DNA from: a virus
Lineage: Duplodnaviria > Caudoviricetes
Direction: 5' to 3' (one strand)
DNA length: 64,000 nt
IMG/VR virus record: IMGVR_UViG_3300028907_000003
Location: 1 to 64,000 of that record
The notes below the pieces were generated by a model. The model worked only from the letters and a program-made list of their open reading frames with translations. It did not search any database and was not told where the DNA came from. The position numbers were made by a program, and so were the translations under genes. Every line of letters starts with the position of its first letter. Within the stretch, counting starts at the first letter, position 1. This document shows, piece by piece, positions 2,915 through 55,712 of this stretch.

Positions 2915-3832
2915 TTAAGTAATGGCTAGTTCTACAACGCCACCAGTTGCGTGAGTCTCAAGAGGAATAAGCCACTCTCTCATCTCAACATAGTAATTTC
3001 CACCCTTCTGTCGTGGATAGTTAGCGTCAATTGCGATATCCTGAGCATGAACCATCTCAGCGAACAGGCTATCCTTACATACCAGATAAGCAAATCCAGA
3101 TGGTACAGCATCGGAGAACTTCAGGAAGCTTCTATCATTCTCATTTCCGGTAAGCAGAGAAGCAATCTGAGGTAAGAAAGCATCACGCTGTGCATCCTTG
3201 CGCCACATTCCGATCATCTCAGATCTGCGGCCTAATAGAAACATCTGAGAATTGGCAAACTTGTCGTCAATTCTGGCCAGAGCATTTAATACGTCCTCAT
3301 AAGGATCCATCGCAGCATCGGTTTCAGAGCCATCCCACGCACCCCTGTTATTGACATCATTACCAGTTGCACCAGATGCAACAACTTTACCGGCTTCGTT
3401 CAGAGCGGCAACGCCATCTAATCCAACAATGCCATAGGTAGAGTTACCATTAATAACTACATCATCTTCAAGTCTATGCAGATATCGCATTCCTAGATCG
3501 ATATTTCTAGCCTGCATCTCAGGATCTCTAGCTAGATCTCTCTCGTTGATAATGAAAGATGTTGCAAAGCTGAACACATCATACTTAACATTCTCTGCGA
3601 ATGTTCCAATGGTTCCAGGAACAGATCCCTTAGCAACGATCTCAGCGTTCTGACCGGCATCCTTGTACTTCAATACCACATCGATATCAGCAGTTGAAGG
3701 TAGGCTTCGCCTAGCCACTATCTGGCGAGCCATCATATTGTCGCCGTAAACTTGAGTATAAAGTGTAATTCTCTTAGTGAAATTTGTTACCCAATCCACC
3801 GGAATTGCACTTGCACCAAACATAGATTCCAT
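2915..3832 (-). CDS. major capsid protein (HK97 fold, linocin/encapsulin-like)
   Basis: 305 aa; follows protease and decoration genes; LHRLEDDVVINGN...YGIVGL pattern of HK97-type MCPs. Confidence 0.75.
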   Translation of the reverse strand: MESMFGASAIPVDWVTNFTKRITLYTQVYGDNMMARQIVARRSLPSTADIDVVLKYKDAGQNAEIVAKGSVPGTIGTFAENVKYDVFSFATSFIINERDLARDPEMQARNIDLGMRYLHRLEDDVVINGNSTYGIVGLDGVAALNEAGKVVASGATGNDVNNRGAWDGSETDAAMDPYEDVLNALARIDDKFANSQMFLLGRRSEMIGMWRKDAQRDAFLPQIASLLTGNENDRSFLKFSDAVPSGFAYLVCKDSLFAEMVHAQDIAIDANYPRQKGGNYYVEMREWLIPLETHATGGVVELAIT

Positions 3833-3843
3833 TTTTTATCACC

Positions 3844-4524
3844 TTAAATTAATACCGCAGCAACTTGGTAAACTTTAGTCAGTAAATCAGTAGATCCATT
3901 AAGTACAACAGTTGCTGGTATCTGAAGTCCAATAACAGTTGTAGAATCAATAGACTTTACACGGTTCAGCTGAACATTGCCATCTAAATCTTCCAGTAAT
4001 ACATAATCACCAATGGAAAGATCCATTGCAGTTAGCTTGGCAGCACTGGAGAAAGTTACAGTTTCATCTCCAACAGCCACAGCAGAAATCACATCATAAC
4101 CCTCATCACCCATGGTCACATCTTCCAGAGCACGAGCAATGCTAGTTGCAGTTTTAGTAGCGCCAGCAGTAGAACCAGCCTCTTCAAGTAACCCATGTCT
4201 TCCGGTATTAGTGGAGCCAACATCGGCAACTTCTAAGTAGTCTCCGGCCTCAATATTAACGTCAGCGCCGTTTGGAATTACGTTTACTCGAACTTTACCT
4301 TCTACCTTGATAGATAGTGGATGATTAGCAGGATAGAACCCCTCATTAGGAGTCATCTGTACTGGATCATCAATGACGATTCCGAGTACGTTTGTTTCAG
4401 TTGTTAACTTTACTGCACCAGCCTTGCCAGCAGCGGTTCTAACCATTGCAGAACCCGGTGCTGTTGCATATGCAGCAGACATAGTAATATTTCCATCAGA
4501 TAAATCTACTTTCTTAAAAGCCAT
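3844..4524 (-). CDS. capsid cement/decoration protein
   Basis: Between protease and MCP; Ala/Gly-rich, IEAGDYLEVAD...GLL...IARALE pattern. Confidence 0.55.
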   Translation of the reverse strand: MAFKKVDLSDGNITMSAAYATAPGSAMVRTAAGKAGAVKLTTETNVLGIVIDDPVQMTPNEGFYPANHPLSIKVEGKVRVNVIPNGADVNIEAGDYLEVADVGSTNTGRHGLLEEAGSTAGATKTATSIARALEDVTMGDEGYDVISAVAVGDETVTFSSAAKLTAMDLSIGDYVLLEDLDGNVQLNRVKSIDSTTVIGLQIPATVVLNGSTDLLTKVYQVAAVLI

Positions 4525-23776: not shown

Positions 23777-24930
23777 TGGAAATATTAGAAACCCATAGAT
23801 TGCCCATCTATAATTGGGCAACTGACTTGGAACAGGGAGCTAAACAGCAAGCTATTAATTTAGCTTTGCACCCATACACGTATGATCATGTGGCTATTAT
23901 GCCTGACAGTCATCAGGGTTATGGAATGCCAATTGGTGGGGTTATTGCTACTAAGTCGGTGATCATTCCTGAAGCAGTGGGGGTAGACATCGGATGTGGT
24001 ATGCAAGCTGTTAAAACTAGCCTCAGTGATATGAACATGACCGCTCTACAGCATGTAGTTGATGATATCAAATCTCGAATACCTGTTGGTTTCTCACATA
24101 GATCTGAATCATTATGGGCTTATATGCCACCAGGACACGAAAAATTAACAGTTGTTAACAGGGAATTTGACTCGGCGTGTCATCAATTAGGAACATTGGG
24201 TGGCGGGAACCACTTCATCGAAATTCAGCAAGGTGATGATGGTTATATCTGGATGATGGTTCATAGTGGAAGCCGCAATCTAGGCAAGAAGGTAGCCGAT
24301 CACTATATAAAAATGGCTACTCAGCAGACAGCAGATTCCGATGTCAACATTCCTAGAAAGTGGGAATTAGACTACTTATACGTAAATTCACCAGATGGCC
24401 AAGATTACATACGAGAAATGAACTACTGCCTAGAGTTTGCTAAAGCAAATCGCTCATATATGATGAAAGAAATGTGTGAATCCATGAGCGCTGTCATACC
24501 CACTGTTAGTTATGAGCCTGTAATTGATATACACCACAATTACGCCGAACCGATTAAACTGGATGGTCTTAATCTGGTGTTGCATAGGAAAGGCGCTACA
24601 GCTGCTAATCGTGGTCAGATGGGTATTATTCCTGGCAGTCAGGGGACCGCCAGCTACATTGTAGAGGGCCGTGGTAATGGTAAGTCGTTTTGCAGCTGCT
24701 CACATGGATCCGGGAGGCGCATGGCTAGAGGAGTCGCCAAGCGAAACTTAAACCTGGATGATGAGCGGTATATACTCGATAGGCAAATGATCATTCATGA
24801 TATGACCAGTACTGAAGCCCTAGATGAAGCTCCAGGCGCTTACAAGAATATCGAATTGGTTATGGAGAATCAAAAGGATCTAGTAAAGCCACTAGTTAGA
24901 TTGACTACAAGAGCGGTGATAAAAGGATGA
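23776..24930 (+). CDS. rtcB: RtcB 3'-phosphate RNA ligase (short bacterial-type)
   Basis: MPDSHQGYGMPIG, VDIGCG, GGGNHFIE, HSGSR, HRKGAT, SHGSGR, EAPGAYK. Confidence 0.95.
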   Translation: MEILETHRLPIYNWATDLEQGAKQQAINLALHPYTYDHVAIMPDSHQGYGMPIGGVIATKSVIIPEAVGVDIGCGMQAVKTSLSDMNMTALQHVVDDIKSRIPVGFSHRSESLWAYMPPGHEKLTVVNREFDSACHQLGTLGGGNHFIEIQQGDDGYIWMMVHSGSRNLGKKVADHYIKMATQQTADSDVNIPRKWELDYLYVNSPDGQDYIREMNYCLEFAKANRSYMMKEMCESMSAVIPTVSYEPVIDIHHNYAEPIKLDGLNLVLHRKGATAANRGQMGIIPGSQGTASYIVEGRGNGKSFCSCSHGSGRRMARGVAKRNLNLDDERYILDRQMIIHDMTSTEALDEAPGAYKNIELVMENQKDLVKPLVRLTTRAVIKG

Positions 24931-36232: not shown

Positions 36233-36454
36233 TTAATCCACCACCTCAGAACTAACGAATTTAATATCGGGCTCAGTCATATTTATGAATTCAATCCACC
36301 CAAATTTCTCAGCCTCTGTCATGTCAATTGTCAGCATTTCATTTGGGTCATATGTCACAGTCTTTCCCGGTACGCCATACCCATTTTCCACAGGTAGTTC
36401 GTAGGTTATTTCCAGAATTATTCTAGCTTTTTTCGGCATAAAACTCACCACCAA
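36233..36454 (-). CDS. hypothetical protein
   Basis: 73-aa ORF divergent from 36539. Confidence 0.45.
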   Translation of the reverse strand: MVVSFMPKKARIILEITYELPVENGYGVPGKTVTYDPNEMLTIDMTEAEKFGWIEFINMTEPDIKFVSSEVVD

Positions 36455-36538
36455 TATATAGGGTTTTCGAGTATAAAAGCGTTTCGGTTTTTCGAGTAAA
36501 TCGAAAAGTTTAAATAGCTAGAAAACAAAGTATCTAGC

Positions 36539-36856
36539 ATGACAAAAACGCCGAGTGGTCAAAGCTGCAATGCTTTCGAGCGGGATGGCAGAATGCACAA
36601 TACCCTTAAAAAAGCCGCCAGAGGCGCATGGCAACATGAAGTGCTCAGGAACCTGATGGATGAAGGCTATGTGATTGGATATCGAGCTACAGGTCCACTG
36701 AGAGGCCGCGCCAAGAGCTATCAGAGCCACTATGCAAAGTCTCTGACTAACATGATGGATCGCATTGAAGAAATACTAGAAACAGAAACTGAGTATCGCC
36801 TTGAACGAGGAAGCGTTGGACCGAAAGGTGGATGGGGATATTACATTACAACGTAG
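36539..36856 (+). CDS. hypothetical protein
   Basis: Leaderless after CGAAAAGTTTAAATA; ends GPKGGWGYYIT. Confidence 0.55.
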   Translation: MTKTPSGQSCNAFERDGRMHNTLKKAARGAWQHEVLRNLMDEGYVIGYRATGPLRGRAKSYQSHYAKSLTNMMDRIEEILETETEYRLERGSVGPKGGWGYYITT

Positions 36857-37036
36857 GTGGTATGAAATGAAGATTAAAAATAAAATGAACCTCAGAAAAG
36901 TACTGCACGATGGAAATTTTAACTGTATTGTTGTATGGCAGGATGGTATATGGACCGATTGTGAAAAGAGATCCGTAGAAGATAGCATCTCACAAGCATT
37001 ATCGGAATTTAAAGAGGTTGAGGAGGTGGACTGAGC

Positions 37037-37288
37037 ATGGTCCAAAATCAATTGCAAATGCAGCAGGAATGGATAGAAGCAATTTTCGACAGGTTGGCCC
37101 TTTGCGTGAATGGCCTACACCTCTCCGATCAGACCGGTGCTGAAACCTTGGGAGAGATTCTTAGGCATACGGCAGTACTGACAAGCGATACTTTCACATA
37201 CGCAGACATTGCCGCGCTAGACAACGAAATACAGGCATGGTTATTAGCTAAAAAATCTGATTCGAATCAGAAGATGAAAACATCCTAG
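37037..37288 (+). CDS. hypothetical protein
   Basis: SD GAGGAGGTG. Confidence 0.5.
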   Translation: MVQNQLQMQQEWIEAIFDRLALCVNGLHLSDQTGAETLGEILRHTAVLTSDTFTYADIAALDNEIQAWLLAKKSDSNQKMKTS

Positions 37289-37398
37289 TTTCCTCATGGG
37301 AAACCGAGGGGGAATTCCCTCCTTTACCACCCCCTCGCTCTTCTCTTTATCCCCATAAAGTTCGTGCGTCTATTGGCGCAGAACGTGGAGGAATTATG
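37288..37398 (+). promoter_or_regulatory. GC-rich structured intergenic leader
   Basis: GTTTCC/GGAAAC, CGAGGGGG/CCCCCTCG and GTTC.TGCGTC/GGCGCA.GAAC stems before SD GGAGG. Confidence 0.45.
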
Positions 37399-37674
37399 AG
37401 AACACGGATCGTAAGCTCAAATGAGATCTATGAGAAAGATTCACTGAGAGCAAGCGACTACATCACACCAGAATCAGCATTCAAACCTGGGATGAAAGTC
37501 GCTTACATCCCTTATCATGCAATGGGAGACATCAATCACGCTGATGTCGAATACGGAACTGTTACCAGTAAGAAGTTTGTTGGTGAGCAGGAGGTCATTT
37601 TCGTCAAGTTCCCGGACAGTCCATCATGCTCTAAAGGATGTCGCCCGGATCAATTGAGGGAGATGCCAAGATGA
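37396..37674 (+). CDS. SH3-like hypothetical protein
   Basis: FKPGMKVAYIP...EYGTVTS...IFVKF. Confidence 0.55.
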   Translation: MRTRIVSSNEIYEKDSLRASDYITPESAFKPGMKVAYIPYHAMGDINHADVEYGTVTSKKFVGEQEVIFVKFPDSPSCSKGCRPDQLREMPR

Positions 37675-37675
37675 G

Positions 37676-38082
37676 GTGAATCGCATGCACTGGATAAAAG
37701 ATGGTAAACTTGGGCATTACACAATTGAGCACTCGGAACTTCAGCATTGTGCTGCAAACCAACATTGCCCAGACTGCAATCACACAGGAACCTTCCAGCC
37801 TGATCGCATAGTCAAAGCAGATGGGGAGTGGCTGTTCACTGAAGCCCACTGTCACCACTGCGACGCAAAGCTGGTGATATTGAAAACAGATATAGCATCA
37901 TGACAAAATGCGAATCGTGCGGAAAAGAACTTCTAGATGGTGCCGCTGTGGTCCGGGTTCAATATGGAAATATTTATAATAATGTTAACATGCGCCGAGC
38001 CACCGAAGATGACCATTTCTGCCGAAGTTGTGTAGAATCCGGAAATGTGGCAATTCGAGATTGTTACCTAGCAAAACAGTGA
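37676..38082 (+). CDS. two small Zn-finger ORFs (37676..37903, 37900..38082)
   Basis: CPDC..CHHC and CESC..CRSC pairs; ATGA coupling. Confidence 0.55.
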
Positions 38083-38092
38083 GGTGTTATAA

Positions 38093-38392
38093 ATGGTGTG
38101 TAACTTTCAACTAAAGAGGAAGCCAAGAGCTTGCTGGAGGCAAACGATGACCTCGATTCCGGTCATTTTAATTTCGCTTAATTTATTTTTTTGTTCCGTC
38201 GCGATGGGCCAAGTAAGCTTAGAGTTCTCATGCTCAGTGATAGGTAATGGTAACATGAGCCTTGACCATGAAAATGCCATCCTGAATGTATCACTAAACA
38301 TGAGCAACATTAGCATTGACGAGTGGAACAATAGCAGTGCTTGGCAATGGGAAATTTCAACGAAAGGTTTAAATTATAGTAAATACAATTAA
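38093..38392 (+). CDS. exported protein
   Basis: Signal-like ILISLNLFFCSVAMG; Asn-rich. Confidence 0.45.
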   Translation: MVCNFQLKRKPRACWRQTMTSIPVILISLNLFFCSVAMGQVSLEFSCSVIGNGNMSLDHENAILNVSLNMSNISIDEWNNSSAWQWEISTKGLNYSKYN

Positions 38393-38646
38393 GCGTATTT
38401 GGCCGCTATTTAAACCAACCAAAACTTACTTATTTTTGAAACGCTATGATCATGATTTATGATGAACCTGAATGATGTGGAAGATCGCGCACGACTACAG
38501 AAAATCCGAGTGGTGGCGCACATGGGGAACTCCGCAGTTTAAATTCAACCCGGATAAAGATATCCGCAATGGATATAAGCCAAGCAACTTTGCCGTAGAC
38601 CAAAAAGGTTAAATACTCAAAAGTCGTGTATAGGTATTGGTGAAAT

Positions 38647-38916
38647 GTGATGAATACCAGATTCGATAGAGCAAGAATGATGTCCAGCACCGTTATGCAA
38701 AGTGAATTGGCCCTTAGATCCGGAAGAAATTCTAAAAATATCGAGCTATGCAAAAGATGTCTATCAGATGTTGGTATTGATAAAAGTATATATGCAATAG
38801 CTCGTTTATATGAAATGGATTCTAAGATCCCGGTTAGTGATGAACGACGACGCAGGATCGTAGACATTGCAAAAACAGCTGCCGCTGAAATTTATATAAT
38901 ACTTGGTGGTGTTTGA
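38647..38916 (+). CDS. hypothetical protein
   Basis: 89-aa ORF after promoter AAAAAGGTTAAATA. Confidence 0.5.
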   Translation: MMNTRFDRARMMSSTVMQSELALRSGRNSKNIELCKRCLSDVGIDKSIYAIARLYEMDSKIPVSDERRRRIVDIAKTAAAEIYIILGGV

Positions 38917-38917
38917 A

Positions 38918-39063
38918 ATGAAACTTGTTATGAGTAAAAAGAAGTCTGTGATATCGTTTCGAGATATCTAAGTGATGAAAAGGATCTCAATGTTGAGAAT
39001 ATCGAACTCGAAGAATGCTGTAATGTAATTGAACTACATGCTGATATTGTGGTGGATGATTAA
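38918..39063 (+). pseudogene. small gene with a -1 lesion in the A-run 38936-38940
   Basis: MKLVMSK then EVCDIVSRYLSDEKDLNVENIELEECCNVIELHADIVVDD* in the -1 frame, abutting the next ATG. Confidence 0.55.
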
Positions 39064-42000
39064 ATGTTCGATGTAGAACCTGAAATAAAGCTAAACGACA
39101 GCCAGTTGAAAAGGCTGCGCATGGCAATGAAAGACTGTCATTCGCTGGATATAGAATCGCTTATGATCGCCGCAGTTGAAAAATTCTTGCGGGTATATAA
39201 CCAAGCACCGGACCATTGGGAAAGTGTTATTAGAGGTATAAAATCTCTGAATGGCACATCTGATGATGCAGCGATATTTATGGCCGGTTATATGGCAAAG
39301 GTGTTTATAGATGAAATTGAATATCAATATTCGGGAGAGAAATTGACATGAATGACGGTATAACTTTGATGATGGCACTCTTAACAGCTGCCATTGCATA
39401 CCTAGTTGGATTGGCATTAACTGCACTATATTACGGCGTGATAATCGCGCTTATATACAAGTTCTTGGAATGGGTTGGAATCTTGGTAATAGGGATGTTG
39501 TAAAATGAAGACTCCCTCTTCAATTTTATCGCATTCCGAGGATTGGCAAAACGGATCATGGCGGGATTATGACATACATGAACTTGGTATGTGGGTACAT
39601 GTTCTTGTAAAACGAGCTTATCATAGAACTAAAACTAAAGATGCTAAGAAAGATCTGGAAGATGCACAGAATTACTTGAACATGATGCAGGAACACATTA
39701 ATCAGGCTAAGGAGGATTTAAATGGCTTGGACTCTATTTTGGGACATGCTCAATCAGGGCCGCTACCGAAAGCTTTTTATAGCTTACGTGCCTAGTAGTG
39801 ATGCGGTGCGGGAAGAACTGCGCGGGATGGCATGAGCCGTCCTCTCGCACTCAATCACTTGGAGGTAGATTACTTGGAGCAAACACAAATAACCGTTAAC
39901 ATCTTTGGGATGGATGATGCTAGACTAGATGCAATTGATCGTGAAGTAGTCACATACCTTATGAAACATGTGATGGAAAGCACGATCACGAATTGCGTGT
40001 CCGAAATTATTAATTATTATGATAATCCCGAAGAACGAGTTTATGCTGCGTATTCGGTTGGTATGCTGATAGGCTATATGAACGGGAGGGTATCAGAATA
40101 GAGGCTCGAATAGCCTCTCTCTCATGGAGATGTATATGCATGATGATCAGATTTGAGTTCAAACATGGTGGATTTATAGAATGTGAAATTGATGTAGATC
40201 AATCATGGGATGAAGTTGCCACGAAGATATATGAATCGCATTTCATCATTGGTGACAATGACGATGGTTCTATTGGATTTGCATTTCTGAGAAGCGAGCT
40301 TAAGTATATAAGACGGGTGCATTGAAAAAAACCGGGGGAAATTTATGTTAGGAAACTTGAATGATTTTATAGATATAAAAGAACCAGTAACAGTCGGCCA
40401 ATTAATCGAGGTTTTGAAACAATTTGATCCTGACATGCCGGTTGAAATTGGGGCAGAAGGTGTGTTCCAGGGATGGCCAACAAGCGTGCATGTCCAAACG
40501 ACAAATTATGGTAATACTGCAGCTGTTTTGTGGGCTGAATGAGGTTAAAAATGATTGAACTTCTAGCTGGAATCGGGTTTATTGGTATACTGGCTTTTGT
40601 TATTAACTCATGGATCGATTGGACGAGTGTTCGAGTAGCATACGACTTGATGTTGGTGTTTTTCGAATTCGTTGATGACATGCAACAGAACTACAAACCA
40701 TGTATTGGTTTTGTGAGGAATCCATGAAGATATATTGGGTTTGCGCCGAACTCTATGGTAAATGCTTTTTCAGGTTTTCATTAGAAGAAGCGCAGCATGA
40801 ATGTGATTTCCGCATGGAAGAAAAGAAAAAACCATTAGATGTATTTGGTTGCCCGAAAGGAGAAGACGTTTATGGTGATTGGTATGTTCTAGCGGAAGAA
40901 AAACCTGATGAATTGTTTGGAACATGTCAAAATAAAGATGAGCCTAGATTACCATATCAACCAGATTGCTCAGTTGGGATGATTAGAAAAGATCGAGCAG
41001 GAATCCTATATGATGATGGCACATGTGGAACCTGCCCGTATTTTATAAAACTAGGTGAATAAAAACATGGATAAAATTCAAATGGTTTCGATGTATACGG
41101 CATATGACAAAGTAGTGCTGGACACTGCTTGCTTCATGTACCTGGACGGTGTTGACCCGGAGACATCTGCATTCAGCAGACCATCCTTTGATCAGATGAT
41201 GTTTATGAGATGCATGTGGTATCATGATCTGCCGGAAGCTGTAAAGGAAGCTCTGTTTGAGCAAGCCCAAAACGATGTACCTAGAGTGATTGAGCGGCTG
41301 ATTAATCCAATACCATTATGGGGATAGGTAATGGCCATACAGTGCGAAAAACGTGGATCCAAGTTTATAGACAATGATGCTTGGGTAGCTGACGATGATG
41401 GTGATGAGGTCATCGTGATGTACACTTATCAAGAATGCTTGAATTCGTAGAAAACCAGGTATTTTAAGGAGTGAGCATGATATATATAAATTTTTTCATT
41501 GGATTTGCGCTAATCGGGATGTACATGATGATTCATTCGCCCGTTTGGTGTGGATTCGCCGCATTGATGAGCGCGTTGAGTTTTTGGGCAGGAATATATG
41601 ATGAAATTTGATGGGTGGTAACATGGGTACATGGGAAAAGTGTCCGGATTGTAACAAGACGTTCTTATCACTGGATGTAAAAGATCCAATGGATGTTGTA
41701 GTGCATATCGAGTTACGGGAAGCTCCCCATCCAAAGTTTACCGATTTGCTCAATATGGGTGGTGGAGAGGGTTTTGGAAGTGGTAATGCGTTTGGGAAAT
41801 TGACCGATAAACAGAGGAAGCATTTCCTGACCCATTTATTACGATATGCTAAAATGTTGTTACAGGAAGCCGAAGCGAGATATGACTATGATGTAAGCTA
41901 TGGAATTGATACCGGGAGGATACAGATATGAAAGATGAAATATTCGATACACGCACGTATCGTGAAGAAGTTAATCGAGACATTGCCACAATGGAAGTTG

Positions 42001-42607: not shown

Positions 42608-43021
42608 TTAACTAAAGATTAACCCGCAGCCCTCGCATTCCTTTTCATTGTTTCTGTTATAACGCACTATTGAACCACATTCGTTGCAACGTAGCCGCTG
42701 CAGAACCGGTTTTCCATCAATCTCTACCCATTCATCTATCGCGCATCCACAAGATGATGAATGTTCAGCGGGATATTTATGTGTTTTACGTAGGATGTTT
42801 CTATAATTGATAAAGGCTACTTTATCTTGACGACTTTCGAAGAATATGCAGTAATTAGATGTAGTTATGAAGAAATGACGCTTGCCCTTCTTGTATCGTT
42901 TTTTCATTTCTTTAATGTGACATAATTTACAAATTCTTCCTAAATTTCTACGCTTCTTAGATCGGTATTCATTGGATCCATTCAAGTCACAACCGCAACA
43001 ACGGCATAATCTAGTTTCCAT
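42608..43021 (-). CDS. multi Zn-finger protein (C-terminal TFIIB-like ribbon)
   Basis: CRCCG..CKLC; CNECG..CEGCGLIF. Confidence 0.55.
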   Translation of the reverse strand: METRLCRCCGCDLNGSNEYRSKKRRNLGRICKLCHIKEMKKRYKKGKRHFFITTSNYCIFFESRQDKVAFINYRNILRKTHKYPAEHSSSCGCAIDEWVEIDGKPVLQRLRCNECGSIVRYNRNNEKECEGCGLIFS

Positions 43022-43463: not shown

Positions 43464-43814
43464 ATGGAGTTGTATTTTCCAGGCGGAGGACATATTTCTG
43501 CAAGAGAGGTATCCGTTAGTGGTGTTCCGTGTATGAAAGTGACCGCTGTAGATGGATTCTCATCGGATCCAAGAGATCCGGTGCATATGGTACTATGTTC
43601 AGTTGGATTCATATATGAACCACCCGATGGTACAAAACTGAAAAAACATCATCAAAACGGGCCATCGGTAAGTTATCCAAACAATGATGCCCTGGACCTC
43701 TGGAGCTTTAATACGAGGATCGAGGATGTAATTCCCAAGTTCGTGTTCCGAGAAATCATCGAACATATCAGAAACAGTGTGCCATGGGAAGGTATTGAAG
43801 AGGTTGTAATATGA
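43464..43814 (+). CDS. WxGxEEV-family paralogue 1 (no SH3-like module)
   Basis: EVSVSGVPCMKV...GF; IPKFVFREII; ends WEGIEEVVI. Confidence 0.65.
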   Translation: MELYFPGGGHISAREVSVSGVPCMKVTAVDGFSSDPRDPVHMVLCSVGFIYEPPDGTKLKKHHQNGPSVSYPNNDALDLWSFNTRIEDVIPKFVFREIIEHIRNSVPWEGIEEVVI

Positions 43815-44248
43815 AAGAAATGCTAAAGCTTATAATCAACGGGACAAAGGTTGTGGTTTATGATGATGATACCATAACAATTGATACCCCAAGAAACGTC
43901 GATGTAACCGAGACTGTTATAAGACCGGTGGCCCAAAATAAACCGGGGAATTCCAGATCCGAGTTTATTAAGTATGGTGCTGGTCCATGGGTGCTCAGTA
44001 ATAAGGAAGCTCAACAGAAACTGAATAGAGTTACTGGTGATGGATACAAGGCATTTAACAGGGAGCCTATCATCGATGTTGGTAATGATGTGTGGCTGGT
44101 ATTGTCCGATACCGATAAGGATAAATACTATGTAGTATACAAAGAGGGGATGAAGCCAAAGTGCTCGTGTCCAAGCTTCCATTTCCATCATAAGGGCAAT
44201 GGGCAGTGCAAACATATCGGGTATTTGGTATCAAAAGCGGTGATTTGA
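43811..44248 (+). CDS. SWIM Zn-finger protein
   Basis: CSCPSF...CKHI. Confidence 0.7.
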   Translation: MKEMLKLIINGTKVVVYDDDTITIDTPRNVDVTETVIRPVAQNKPGNSRSEFIKYGAGPWVLSNKEAQQKLNRVTGDGYKAFNREPIIDVGNDVWLVLSDTDKDKYYVVYKEGMKPKCSCPSFHFHHKGNGQCKHIGYLVSKAVI

Positions 44249-44535
44249 GAATGGAAATCGAGATGTATAAGATAATGGACTCCGATTTGAAGTTTTCAAG
44301 CGGAGGATTGCACCCGATGTTTACGCGGGAAGGCAAAACATGGAACTCGAAGGCCAGACTGCATGCCCACTTTAGACTGCTAAATGAATACGGAATGCTT
44401 AAGAAGTGTTACGATGGATGCCGTATTATTCGCATCAGTCTGAATTTTGAGGAGAATCGGGTAACTGCCGGGGGATGCTCGGTTGATGCCGACGAGTTTT
44501 ATCAAAAGCTGGTATCGCCATGCGGGACAAATTAG
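44206..44535 (+). CDS. hypothetical protein
   Basis: FSSGG.HP.FTREGKTW motif. Confidence 0.5.
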   Translation: MQTYRVFGIKSGDLRMEIEMYKIMDSDLKFSSGGLHPMFTREGKTWNSKARLHAHFRLLNEYGMLKKCYDGCRIIRISLNFEENRVTAGGCSVDADEFYQKLVSPCGTN

Positions 44536-44843
44536 CGGTTATGAAAGGCACAGATATGTTTACCGCCAAAGTAGCACAAAGACGTAAGACTGTAAGAATC
44601 GGTGGTAAATTAGCCGATCAGCGTATAATCACTGATGTTCGAAATCTAAAAGGAGAGCCGATAACCGATCATTTAGTGTTGACGATTGGTCGAGAAATAC
44701 CCGCTGTGCCTATTGCATATGCCCGGATTGTACCCGGATGTAATATCAAATTTGAGGGAAAGCCGCAAAAGTATACCAGAGCGAATGGAACACAAGATTA
44801 CACATTGTTTGTGAAAAAGTTAGTTGAAAGTAAAATGGAGTGA
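44520..44843 (+). CDS. OB-fold-like hypothetical protein
   Basis: ITDV...GEPITDHL...PG..IKF.G....Y pattern. Confidence 0.5.
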   Translation: MRDKLAVMKGTDMFTAKVAQRRKTVRIGGKLADQRIITDVRNLKGEPITDHLVLTIGREIPAVPIAYARIVPGCNIKFEGKPQKYTRANGTQDYTLFVKKLVESKME

Positions 44844-45466
44844 AATGTATGAGTGGAGACTTTAGAGTTGGAGATTTGGTACGCATAACCAAGAGAATGA
44901 AGTCTGGAAGCCCAGGCTGGAATGACATTATGGACAAATATATCGGACAGGTTGCCACAATTAAGAGTATCGAAAATCGTGATTGTGGAAAAGCGCAGTG
45001 GTACTTCATGGAGGAATTCGGGTGGACCTGGACAGACGATGTATTTGAACATGTTATGGTAATCAAGACTGAGAAGGTTATATGTGGCGGGAGGAGGTGC
45101 CGCAAGATCCTTGGGTTTAAGGGTTTCCCGAAGCGGTGTGATGTTAGACCATATATGGGTATCGAAGATGTTGGTCGATGTGGGCGGCATATTGTAGATG
45201 AATGCGGTAGACCGGAGTGGGAAGGCTATTCTCATCAGCTTGGTGGACCAGATGAACTAATCGGTGACTTCACAGATAGTCAAGCAGCCGGTGTGAATAT
45301 TGGTGGATATTATCTTAATATTCGAACTAATAGTGTGTTCTTGGAAGATACATTCCAGGCTATCCTGAAGCAGATTCAAGAGCGTAAGAATATATACTTC
45401 GAAAATCGCACTTCAATAAAAGCCGAAGTAGTGGATTGGTCTGGTATCGAAGAGGTCGTGATTTAA
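44840..45466 (+). CDS. WxGxEEV-family paralogue 2 (SH3-like plus core)
   Basis: FRVGDLVRI..MDKYIG; TEKVICGGRRCRKI; ends WSGIEEVVI. Confidence 0.7.
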   Translation: MKCMSGDFRVGDLVRITKRMKSGSPGWNDIMDKYIGQVATIKSIENRDCGKAQWYFMEEFGWTWTDDVFEHVMVIKTEKVICGGRRCRKILGFKGFPKRCDVRPYMGIEDVGRCGRHIVDECGRPEWEGYSHQLGGPDELIGDFTDSQAAGVNIGGYYLNIRTNSVFLEDTFQAILKQIQERKNIYFENRTSIKAEVVDWSGIEEVVI

Positions 45467-45550
45467 ATGAGGTTTAGTTTCTCCGACTGGAGAAACAAAC
45501 TTCTTGGTTGGTTACATAGTTGGAAAGGTATCGAAGAGGTTGTAATATGA
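45467..45550 (+). CDS. 27-aa micropeptide consisting mainly of the family C-terminal tag
   Basis: MRFSFSDWRNKLLGWLHSWKGIEEVVI*. Confidence 0.55.
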   Translation: MRFSFSDWRNKLLGWLHSWKGIEEVVI

Positions 45551-46119
45551 AGTTTAAAACGGGTGATAGAATCCTAGTGTTACCCAATAGGCAAAGTTGC
45601 CCGGAGGGTATGGGTGTTGTCGTTGATGCCACTGACAAATGGTCAATCCATGTTAAGTTAGATGACCATGACAAAATATTCTGGATAAGCTATGATTGTT
45701 TGAGCTTACAGAAGCCACAATATGCGAGCATTACCACTGAAAAGGTTATGCGCGGTGGGAAAAAATGCCGCAGAATTATTAAGTTCAACAACATCAAGCA
45801 GAGAAGTCAGCTGCCGGAGGAGTATTTCGCAGGTGATAGGTGGTTTTACTTATCAGATAAAAAAGAAAACAGCTACCATGATGTCAAATCAGATGGTAAG
45901 TGTGATTGGCAATTGGGGGGAGCTGTTAATCGTGTTGTACTTGGACCAAATAAGCCCACACTCAATTTAGAGGGGTATTGCCTAATATTCACCGAGAGTT
46001 CGGTGTTACCGGAAGCGGCTTTCCAGAAGATTGTGGCATACATGAGAGAAGCCGGAGAACTGTACAGAAAGGTAAGAATCGCGCGTGAATGGTCTGGTGT
46101 TGAAGAGGTTATACTATGA
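45547..46119 (+). CDS. WxGxEEV-family paralogue 3
   Basis: FKTGDRI; TEKVMRGGKKCRRI; ends WSGVEEVIL. Confidence 0.7.
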   Translation: MKFKTGDRILVLPNRQSCPEGMGVVVDATDKWSIHVKLDDHDKIFWISYDCLSLQKPQYASITTEKVMRGGKKCRRIIKFNNIKQRSQLPEEYFAGDRWFYLSDKKENSYHDVKSDGKCDWQLGGAVNRVVLGPNKPTLNLEGYCLIFTESSVLPEAAFQKIVAYMREAGELYRKVRIAREWSGVEEVIL

Positions 46120-47072
46120 AGATTGGACAGATGGTAAAGATTGTTAAAAAAATTGATATGGCAGAGCGGCCTTGTTGGGTATCAAGTATGGATCAAACTG
46201 TTGGCCATACTGGAACCATACAAGATATTTCAATGAGTGGAAACGCTATTAGGGTACACACTGCTGTTGGTGGATCGTGGTGGTATGCGCCTGAAGCTCT
46301 GGATCCAATATCTGAATATAATGTTGGTGACAAGGTAAAAATTGTAAAGCGAGTAACATCCTATGATGCGCCGTGGTGGGTGACAGACATGGATGCTACT
46401 GTAGGTGAAGTGGGAGAGGTAATTGAATTAAGTAGTTGCGATAGAACACGATTTAAAGTCAGAACTTCCACTGGTTGTTGGTGGTATGATTTCGCATCTC
46501 TTGAAAAGGTTGTAACACTACCAACAATCGTAACCGAGAAGATTGTTCGCGGTGGAAAGAAGTGCCGCAGGATCGTGTCATTCAAGAACATGCCCACAAA
46601 AGAGTCTTGGGGAGAGTGCCCCAACAAACCATACTATTATGTATGTAAGTCCTATTGTGAGAATGGTTCCAGGCATGATGTTAACACCGAAGGTAAGCCG
46701 TTTTGGAATCATAGCGGATCCGGAGATCAATTCATTGAATTCATGTTTGAAGATGAGCATACGGATATAGATATCCATGTACCGTATCTGACTCTTGACG
46801 CAGAATCCGTATTCCTGGAGGATACTTTCCAGGCCATCCTAAAACAGCTTAAGATCTGCCAGAGAAAAACAGAAACTAGAGTTCCAGCTGTCCACAGTGA
46901 GAGAGAAATTGGGAGGGTTTGTATGAAATATGGTTATCAGCTGATATCCAGACCAGTGCCTATACTACAGATGTTTAAAGGTGTTAGTATTGGCATGGAT
47001 ATGAGTTATGGATCCAATATTACGTTTGGTTTTGTGCCGATGTTCGACAATGAGCATATACCAAGCAATTGA
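46116..47072 (+). CDS. family paralogue 4 (two SH3-like modules plus core, tag replaced by an extension)
   Basis: KIGQMVKIVK and NVGDKVKIVK repeats; TEKIVRGGKKCRRI; SVFLEDTFQAILKQ identical to paralogue 2. Confidence 0.7.
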   Translation: MKIGQMVKIVKKIDMAERPCWVSSMDQTVGHTGTIQDISMSGNAIRVHTAVGGSWWYAPEALDPISEYNVGDKVKIVKRVTSYDAPWWVTDMDATVGEVGEVIELSSCDRTRFKVRTSTGCWWYDFASLEKVVTLPTIVTEKIVRGGKKCRRIVSFKNMPTKESWGECPNKPYYYVCKSYCENGSRHDVNTEGKPFWNHSGSGDQFIEFMFEDEHTDIDIHVPYLTLDAESVFLEDTFQAILKQLKICQRKTETRVPAVHSEREIGRVCMKYGYQLISRPVPILQMFKGVSIGMDMSYGSNITFGFVPMFDNEHIPSN

Positions 47073-54938: not shown

Positions 54939-55712
54939 ATGAAGTATGAAGTTGGAGACAAGATCCGTATCGTGAAAAAGGGACCGCGTTGGAATTCGGC
55001 TGGAAAGATGGATCATTTGGTTGGTAAAACGGTTGTTATTGCCGATATTGTGAAATACTCCGAATTACCAATTGGAATCAGAGATGAACCAGAAGCGGAA
55101 GGTACTGATAAGATGTGGTGGCTCCTGGAAAATGAAATTGAACTTGTAGAGAAGGCGAGTTTGATGAAGTATAAGGTTGGAGATATGGTTCGTATCGTAA
55201 GAAAAACATCCGGTAAGTGGAATCTAGAGGGTTTAATGGACCATATGTTGGGTAAAACCGCTAAGATCACATCAATTGATGCGAGAAGTACAAGCTTGCC
55301 TATTGAAATCCGAGATGGTAATGACGGTAGAACTTGGTGGTTTGATCCGAATGAAATTGAACTTGTAGATGAACCTAGATTTAAGACGGTTGATCTTTCT
55401 GATCCATGTGAAAGAAAGTGGTTTATGAAAAAAATGGAAACAGAAGCTTTCAAGAGCAAGCATATAGTAGTTGCTAAGATACCCGCTTATGGAGAAATTA
55501 ATTACTATATACTAAAGGATGTTGATCTTAAGTGCAGTTCTCCAATTAATCCGGATTATGCATTCATGTCGCTGCAGAATTCGTTTAGAATTTGGGAAGA
55601 TCCTGGTGAGTTGGGAGATCTCATATCAAGAACTAGAAGTGATATTGATAAGTTGTATGTTCTGGATAGCCTAAGTGATCTCAAGCAGCTGCTTATTGAT
55701 GAAGGTGTTTAA
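54939..55712 (+). CDS. protein with two tandem SH3-like modules
   Basis: MKY.VGD..RIV.K...WN..G.MDH..GKT..I....LPI.IRD...WW....EIELV twice. Confidence 0.65.
   Translation: MKYEVGDKIRIVKKGPRWNSAGKMDHLVGKTVVIADIVKYSELPIGIRDEPEAEGTDKMWWLLENEIELVEKASLMKYKVGDMVRIVRKTSGKWNLEGLMDHMLGKTAKITSIDARSTSLPIEIRDGNDGRTWWFDPNEIELVDEPRFKTVDLSDPCERKWFMKKMETEAFKSKHIVVAKIPAYGEINYYILKDVDLKCSSPINPDYAFMSLQNSFRIWEDPGELGDLISRTRSDIDKLYVLDSLSDLKQLLIDEGV

Follow-up and report, generated by a model that had tools for sequence, protein, structure and literature searches.

The C-terminal tail of bacterial and phage single-stranded DNA-binding proteins (SSB), an acidic stretch that ends in hydrophobic residues, is a hub for partner proteins. 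Class II PDZ ligands end in a hydrophobic-x-hydrophobic pattern with a free carboxylate, and the EEVD tail of Hsp70 and Hsp90, with its terminal aspartate after E-E-V, is a ligand of tetratricopeptide repeat (TPR) domains. Here, a nine-residue C-terminal tail of the form W-x-G-x-E-x-V-x-I is described, which recurs in a tandem gene array within a stretch of 64,000 nucleotides of tailed-virus DNA (hereafter the window), the first 64 kb of the 85-kb linear IMG/VR virus record IMGVR_UViG_3300028907_000003, a record that is about 80% complete. The reading proposed, in which we place an even measure of confidence when it is taken as a whole, is that this is a family-defining C-terminal docking tail, that the array was copied locally, and that a micro open reading frame (micro-ORF) within it is a tail-only frame.

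The tail is the best conserved part of a protein family that extends beyond the window. A profile built from the cores of the four paralogues of the array was searched against 1.84 billion representative proteins and gave 44 matches at E <= 1e-3 and 14 at E <= 1e-10, most of which reach the last residue. Conservation was counted in 40 family members, with alignments that are shallow (39-41 sequences). Counting back from the C-terminus, tryptophan occupies position -9 in 39 of the 40, glycine -7 in 38, glutamate -5 in 37, a V, I, F or L residue -3 in 38 and isoleucine -1 in 38, with information contents of 4.15, 3.99, 3.82, 2.87 and 3.99 bits, respectively; positions -8, -6, -4 and -2 carry 1.6-2.3 bits. 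This period-two conservation is the pattern predicted for an extended strand with one face in contact. The tag forms the last nine residues of almost all members and is kept across relatives that are less than 50% identical, with a family consensus of approximately W-S-G-K-E-T-V-E-I; the E-E-V-V-I wording is specific to the lineage of the window. The family is found in architectures of about 130-142 amino acids (aa) without an SH3-like module, of about 200 aa where there is one and of 262-290 aa where there are two, and its other invariant residues are T, K, C and R on the first hairpin and E, F and Q at the start of the helix. The core family has no match in Pfam or NCBIfam, and in PHROGs it matches unannotated families only, in 1-3 of 41 members. 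What emerges is a real and well-conserved family of viral proteins, so far without a name, in which a helical stalk carries a one-faced C-terminal tail.

In the window, the tag was searched as the DNA pattern back-translated from W-x-G-[IV]-E-E-V-[IV]. Exactly four matches were obtained, at 43785, 45437, 45521 and 46090, all on the + strand, while none of the 100 dinucleotide shuffles used as a control contained any match (0 expected by chance), and a peptide scan of the complete 85-kb record returned no tag copy beyond these four. Three of the tags end full-length paralogues and one ends a 27-codon ORF, just as the four-copy tag, the ORFs and their endings had been described in the initial annotation. 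The features of the array are the following.

43464-43814, + strand: paralogue 1, 116 aa, divergent; core only, without an SH3 module and with a shortened helix; ends WEGIEEVVI
43785-43814, + strand: tag copy 1 and stop; GAGGT lies 6 nucleotides (nt) before the next ATG, which overlaps the stop (ATATGA)
43811-44843, + strand: three interposed genes from outside the family, namely a SWIM zinc-finger protein (43811-44248), 44317-44535 and 44520-44843
44849-45466, + strand: paralogue 2, 205 aa; core preceded by one SH3_15 module (about residues 5-70); ends WSGIEEVVI
45437-45466, + strand: tag copy 2 and stop (TAA), directly followed by the ATG of the micro-ORF
45467-45550, + strand: 27-codon micro-ORF; ends WKGIEEVVI, with tag copy 3 at 45521-45550
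45547-46119, + strand: paralogue 3, 190 aa; core preceded by one SH3/KOW-like module (residues 1-58); ends WSGVEEVIL, with tag copy 4 at 46090-46119
46116-47072, + strand: paralogue 4, 318 aa; two SH3_15 modules and a truncated core, no tag
46868, no strand: junction of a 200-bp deletion relative to metagenome contigs L008 (its positions 3728-3927) and L009
46923-47072, + strand: 49-codon ORF, a separate gene in relatives (L008 3983-4132) and here the in-frame tail of paralogue 4

Paralogues 2, 3 and 4 are clearly related (E 2e-26 and 1.8e-12), and the motifs E-x4-GG-x2-C-x-[RK] and V-x2-[EK]-x2-F-x2-I that the paralogues had been said to share are present. Paralogue 1 is very divergent: hhalign against the family profile from which it had been excluded gave E 4e-4 and a probability of 35%, over an end-to-end, collinear alignment of 108 columns. 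The close relatives of the region are metagenome contigs L008, L009 and L010, which are 92-95% identical over it, and contig L011 is a 55% relative; the orthologues of paralogue 1 in L008 and L009 keep the tag. The SWIM zinc-finger protein (19.9 bits versus a cut-off of 19.6) separates paralogue 1 from the remaining array, and in the relatives it is identical or nearly so, with 0 to 4 codon differences, compared with 5 to 20 in the flanking paralogues. Near-copies of the tag DNA, either relics or chance, also lie within coding sequence at window positions 45158-45173 and 46501-46515. The first, GGTATCGAAGATGTTG, codes G-I-E-D-V in the variable centre of paralogue 2, is identical to tag 3 at 15 of 16 positions and is not conserved in the orthologue P0010; the second, TTGAAAAGGTTGTAA, falls where the second SH3 module of paralogue 4 ends and codes L-E-K-V-V.

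The codon comparison covered 21 tags with DNA, from eight loci. The codons of the tag differ among them (GGT/GGA/GGC, GTT/GTC/GTG/GTA, ATA/ATT/ATC), and the synonymous variation that had been noted in the window (ATT/ATC, GTT/GTC, GTA/GTG) was confirmed. A word resembling the Shine-Dalgarno (SD) sequence is missing in seven of the 21, which include the L005 and L006 tags, two of L011 and, in both L008 and L009, the tag of the paralogue 4 orthologue; five of these seven hold the full W-x-G-x-E-x-V-x-I peptide, the exceptions being the divergent L005 and L006. In the close relatives, the tag of the paralogue 4 orthologue, W-D-G-I-E-E-V-I-I, is written GAA GAA GTA, and for two of the L011 tags there is no start codon that overlaps the stop or comes directly after it. 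Given that the codons differ and that some tags hold no ribosome-binding site, the W/G/E/V/I skeleton is concluded to be selected at the level of the peptide, and the overlap with the initiation region of the next gene to have shaped only the lineage-specific wording and the choice of codons. Peptide-level selection, which had been proposed at the outset, is thus borne out by an extreme C-terminus that is kept below 50% identity with differing codons. The accompanying proposal that the overlapping SD does not explain the tag also holds, given that tags written GAA GAA GTA, or tags that lie before an untethered gene, keep the peptide.

Paralogue 3 was modelled with AlphaFold2 (AF2) from the 41-sequence alignment, at full length and as the core only, in both cases as a monomer. 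The full-length model has a predicted local distance difference test score (pLDDT) of 84, with 72 for the tail block, and the core-only model has a pLDDT of 92.8 and a predicted template modelling score (pTM) of 0.82, with a pLDDT of 80 for the tail block. The core, of about 100 residues, is modelled as two long beta-hairpins and short strands, followed by a 26-residue helix (core residues 96-121), and the last nine residues are drawn as an unpaired coil in both models, where DSSP assigns neither strand nor bridge. One part of what would have undone the initial interpretation, a tag that is merely the last structural beta-strand of the domain, is not seen in either model. The distance from the invariant F-Q, where the helix starts, to the invariant W is 13 to 41 residues (mode 25), and a fixed docking site in cis is hard to reconcile with a distance that varies by up to 28 residues. 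With an unpaired tail and a helix of variable length, the docking tag of the initial annotation is plausible as an autonomous element, in contrast to the viral partner that it had named, which is considered below. The core (residues ~60-190 of paralogue 3) has no recognisable fold and no sequence match in the PDB; the best results of the fold search with the core model were a Z of 2.8 in VIA, E >= 1.1 in Foldseek against the PDB and E >= 0.14 against BFVD.

Comparison with the relatives shows an array that has expanded locally in this lineage and is visibly unstable. L011 carries three tagged members within 1.8 kb, meaning that tandem arrays recur. In L008 and L009, the orthologues of paralogue 4 have 268-273 aa and end WDGIEEVII. 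Relative to them, 200 bp are missing in the window at 46868, where the core of paralogue 4 is cut after the start of the C-terminal helix, and it is because of this deletion that paralogue 4 is without a tag. With the lost segment went the end of the helix and the tag, as well as the 5' part of a 48-codon ORF and a second, decayed copy of the micro-ORF start. Since the deletion is not a multiple of three, paralogue 4 runs out of frame into the downstream 49-codon ORF. The stretch S-E-R-E-I-G-R-V-C-M in paralogue 4 was considered as a decayed tag and rejected, given that the relatives show the deletion and that the next ORF is initiated there; this site of the 49-codon ORF, GGGAGGGT-ATG, only resembles a degenerate tag. 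On another contig, the 40-residue ORF P0052 is an internal-deletion form of paralogue 2 that still ends in the tag, and it was the only sequence returned when the search was restricted to the last 40 residues and to short proteins. In L010, a contig of 1 kb, positions 963-1069 repeat the equivalent of window 45576-45682 after the equivalent of 44843-45796; either the assembly is chimeric or the array is rearranged there. For paralogues 1 and 3, the codon differences from near-identical relatives divide into non-synonymous and synonymous ones as 12:3, 5:0, 9:6 and 15:5. These ratios are roughly neutral and compatible with relaxed as well as with diversifying selection, so that the host arms race that had been suggested for the variable centres is weakly supported.

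The ATG of the micro-ORF directly follows the paralogue 2 stop (TAAATG), with a GAGGT word 10 nt before it, and the stop of the micro-ORF overlaps the ATG of paralogue 3, making it an exact bridge between two genes in a coupling configuration. From these signals, it is likely translated by coupling. It is intact in L008, L009 and L010, with only the conservative changes D7N and K20R, the latter at a variable position of the tag, although at about 97% identity this conservation carries no statistical weight. Its origin as a recognisable relic of a paralogue was rejected, given that the first 18 codons score like shuffles: the first 54 nt have no match among the array genes that is better than those of shuffles, and the family hidden Markov model (HMM) scores the micro-ORF at 7.0 and its shuffled controls at 6.97 +/- 1.3, leaving no family signal beyond the tag. 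In the relatives, about 35 nt of the micro-ORF start recur after the tag of the paralogue 4 orthologue (80% identity over 64 nt), in a second copy that has lost 1 nt and is reduced to a 13-codon ORF without the tag. Because of this recurrence, the micro-ORF segment is taken to be older than the duplication that gave paralogues 2 and 4, with one copy decayed. A tail-dependent function of the micropeptide is possible but unsupported. Given that the array is prone to deletions that yield tag-bearing mini-ORFs, a by-product of deletion is at least as likely as a competitor.

If the tail acts as proposed, it would dock as a short extended strand, with one face, and probably the free carboxylate, turned towards a conserved surface. 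The receiving surface would belong either to a second family subunit, as its invariant T-E-K/C-R hairpin, or to a conserved hub of the host or the virus. In the case of self-assembly, the residues T, K, C and R of the first hairpin, with E, F and Q at the start of the helix, are the candidate receiving surface, and antiparallel pairing of two equal helices would put each tail by the core of its partner, whatever the length of the helix. Local copying of the gene has given the array of the window lineage, from which pieces are also lost by deletion, and the next gene has taken over the final codons of the tail as its ribosome-binding site and overlapping start. Several observations weigh against this proposal. 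The alignments are shallow and the models cover monomers. In P0015, where two cores are naturally fused, an internal W-S-G-I-E is kept but the V-x-I end is missing, showing that a free carboxylate is not obligatory in every copy, and the tails of L005 and L006 are divergent (W-S-G-[TS]-G-A-D-E-I). The pLDDT of the tail is above what is usual for a free tail, which may therefore pack in cis, and the alternating conservation equally suits an intramolecular strand.

These last points lead to the strongest of the other explanations, that the tail is an ordinary structural part that packs in cis, for example with the W capping the interface between helix and sheet, and is kept for folding. A tail that always accompanies the core, one-face conservation of the kind typical of a packed strand, a pLDDT of 72-80 that is unlike that of a disordered tail, and a further invariant set (T, K, C, R, E, F, Q) that could form one site with the tail would all be accounted for. 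We nonetheless regard it as rather unlikely, given that neither model has a strand or bridge in the last nine residues and that the helix joining the core to the tail differs in length by up to 28 residues. The repeat could also be a cassette for translation initiation and coupling at the DNA or RNA level, made of an SD and a stop-start overlap and copied with the genes, the peptide being a side effect. All four window tags contain GAGGT, and three of them end ATATGA or CTATGA, with the SD word 6 nt ahead of an ATG overlapping the stop. Between tags 1 and 3, 29 of 31 positions are identical, bases past the stop included. This is the usual arrangement in this genome, where ribosome-binding sites are GAGGT or GGAGG at 6-9 nt, and SD sequences with overlapping starts are the norm. 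In L011, one initiation site, GGTTGTAATATGA, comes after the stop of a tag and outside any tag-coding frame. An SD with a coupled start wherever the repeat occurs is what such a cassette would give; this was found in the window but not across the family, where the peptide is constant while the codons, the position of the SD and the arrangement of the downstream gene vary. Most of the tags that hold no SD-like word are complete as peptides, and the W and G lie upstream of any SD. As a primary cause the cassette is thus largely refuted and highly improbable, and it accounts only for the lineage-specific wording and codon choice.

The partner originally put forward was the viral PAN unfoldase with its peptidase, for which the tail would be a degron or docking tag, and the 27-aa peptide a competitive decoy that tunes the turnover of the paralogues. 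The window virus does encode a PAN-like AAA+ ATPase (AAA at 143.7 bits, with AAA_lid_3) and a weak proteasome-like peptidase (20.8 bits, below the cut-off of 22.4); the tail is C-terminal, hydrophobic at its end and common to the paralogues, and the micro-ORF keeps it exactly and is conserved in the close relatives. On the other hand, homologues of PAN and of the peptidase were found only in the record of the window and in none of the four other IMG/VR records with a tagged member (G001-G004), of which G001 and G002 are complete with terminal repeats (54.7 and 64.3 kb) and G003 and G004 are fragments. For this reason, the viral PAN/protease cannot be the conserved reader, and this part of the initial annotation is not borne out, although a host enzyme may read the tail. 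There is also no link between PAN and the motif, tag-bearing mini-ORFs arise by deletion, as in P0052, and the second copy of the micro-ORF start in the relatives is frameshifted, which together make this PAN-read degron and its decoy very improbable. A broader version, which we consider improbable, is that one conserved hub of the archaeal host or of the virion reads the tail as a portable address peptide, the paralogues with their different bodies being alternative cargoes or effectors sent to it and the translated 27-residue peptide a competitor that sets the occupancy of the hub. The hub in that case may be a protease or unfoldase, a PDZ-type reader, the interior of the capsid or the SH3 modules themselves. 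A docking strand received by a conserved surface is kept as the best supported reading.

The four other tagged records have one copy of the gene each, in a neighbourhood of small genes of early type (AbrB/MazE-like, RecT). A second match to the tag pattern in G004, at 23907, falls in a 45-codon ORF and looks spurious. A small DNA-binding protein of the AbrB/MazE type is also found at or near the tagged gene in L005 (5612-5770, 28.1 bits), L004 (5724-5879) and L007 (36-191), and a RecT recombinase in L005 (115 bits); the array of the window has neither an AbrB/MazE nor a RecT neighbour.

The count of SH3-like modules in paralogues 1 to 4, initially given as 0, 1, 1 and 2, was confirmed by matches to Pfam and, for paralogue 3, by the matches of its model. 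The gathering cut-off of SH3_15 (PF18346), 24 bits, is reached by paralogue 2 (25.6) and by paralogue 4 (29.7, two stretches), and SH3_15 matches occur in eight of the 41 family members. Paralogue 3 has no Pfam match, and residues 1-58 of its model resemble SH3/KOW folds with a Z of 5-6.3 and a root-mean-square deviation of 2.0-2.4 over 50-55 aligned residues. Searched against the PDB, the family profile matched chains of MIB1 and HERC2, over the SH3 part only. The REP domain of MIB1 binds a short epitope of the JAG1 tail (PMC11887331). Given that this SH3_15 member binds a short peptide epitope, an interaction between the SH3 modules and the tail is a reasonable idea. The window also encodes, at 54939-55712 on the + strand, a 257-aa protein in which two SH3_15-like modules (23.1 bits, slightly below the same cut-off) are joined to a different C-terminal part, without the tail, and in L004, L005 and L006 SH3-like modules are joined to a winged-helix-like end. 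With modules carried on these other bodies, the SH3 module appears to be shuffled among bodies in these viruses.

The window carries genes of a tailed virus (Mu-type portal, baseplate J), together with large intein-bearing genes, RtcB, the AAA+ ATPase, a D5-like primase-helicase and seven tRNAs. The virus comes from wastewater and its hosts are probably methane-producing archaea; more generally, the tagged family probably consists of proteins of uncultured tailed viruses with archaeal hosts. No relatives of the family were found in 185,579 GTDB reference genomes, which gives no provirus and no host assignment. Phage GenBank records searched with blastn gave no match, IMG/VR gave none when searched with paralogue 3 alone or with members that lack SH3 modules, and the ESM Atlas gave none either. 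Several genes on the minus strand, window 42608-43021 (-) and others in 36233-39417 among them, lack an SD, and a TATA-like A/T box lies about 25-30 nt ahead of their ATG, which would fit leaderless transcripts of archaeal type; the plus-strand operon genes use sites of the GGAGGT type.

The proteins of viruses of methanogens and of other non-extremophile archaea are almost unexplored. This family combines an invariant C-terminal peptide, a confident model of the core without a fold match, and a copy number that differs between near-identical strains, and the nine-residue tail is a direct experimental handle on it. If the reader of the tail is the core of the family itself, this would be a new self-assembly module, and if it is a hub of the host, the family would be a set of viral effectors that share one address.

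Among the systems with which the family can be compared, SH3_15, the Mind bomb REP or SH3 repeat, is the one to which part of the protein belongs, given that the modules of paralogues 2 and 4 pass its cut-off, and it is a peptide-binding kind of module. Unlike MIB1, these are viral proteins in which none to two modules are joined to an unrelated core, and peptide binding is suggested here only by analogy; members without a module still keep the tail. With the SSB tail, the viral tail shares a short, acidic-then-hydrophobic tip at the extreme C-terminus that is conserved far better than the body, as well as a setting among replication and recombination genes (the D5-like primase-helicase in the window, RecT in L005). 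The core, however, has no recognisable oligonucleotide/oligosaccharide-binding (OB) fold: SSB and RPA chains head the Foldseek list only weakly (E 1.1-2.6, TM-score 0.17-0.22, probability 0.04), and none is in the VIA list, where the best Z is that given above. In addition, the viral tip follows a helix and not a disordered linker, and it has an invariant W and G. As in PDZ ligands, the last three residues are [VIFL]-x-[IL] at a free C-terminus in 37 of the 40 members, and the one-face strand pattern fits binding by beta-augmentation, although the conserved part spans nine residues, with W, G and E upstream. EEVD tails differ from the viral tail in that the last residue of the latter is I in 38 of 40 members and not D, and E-E-V belongs to the window lineage, with a family consensus nearer K-E-T-V-E-I. 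By analogy, the tail thus resembles the C-terminal docking tips of SSB, PDZ ligands and EEVD proteins in its logic, and has the defining features of none of them.

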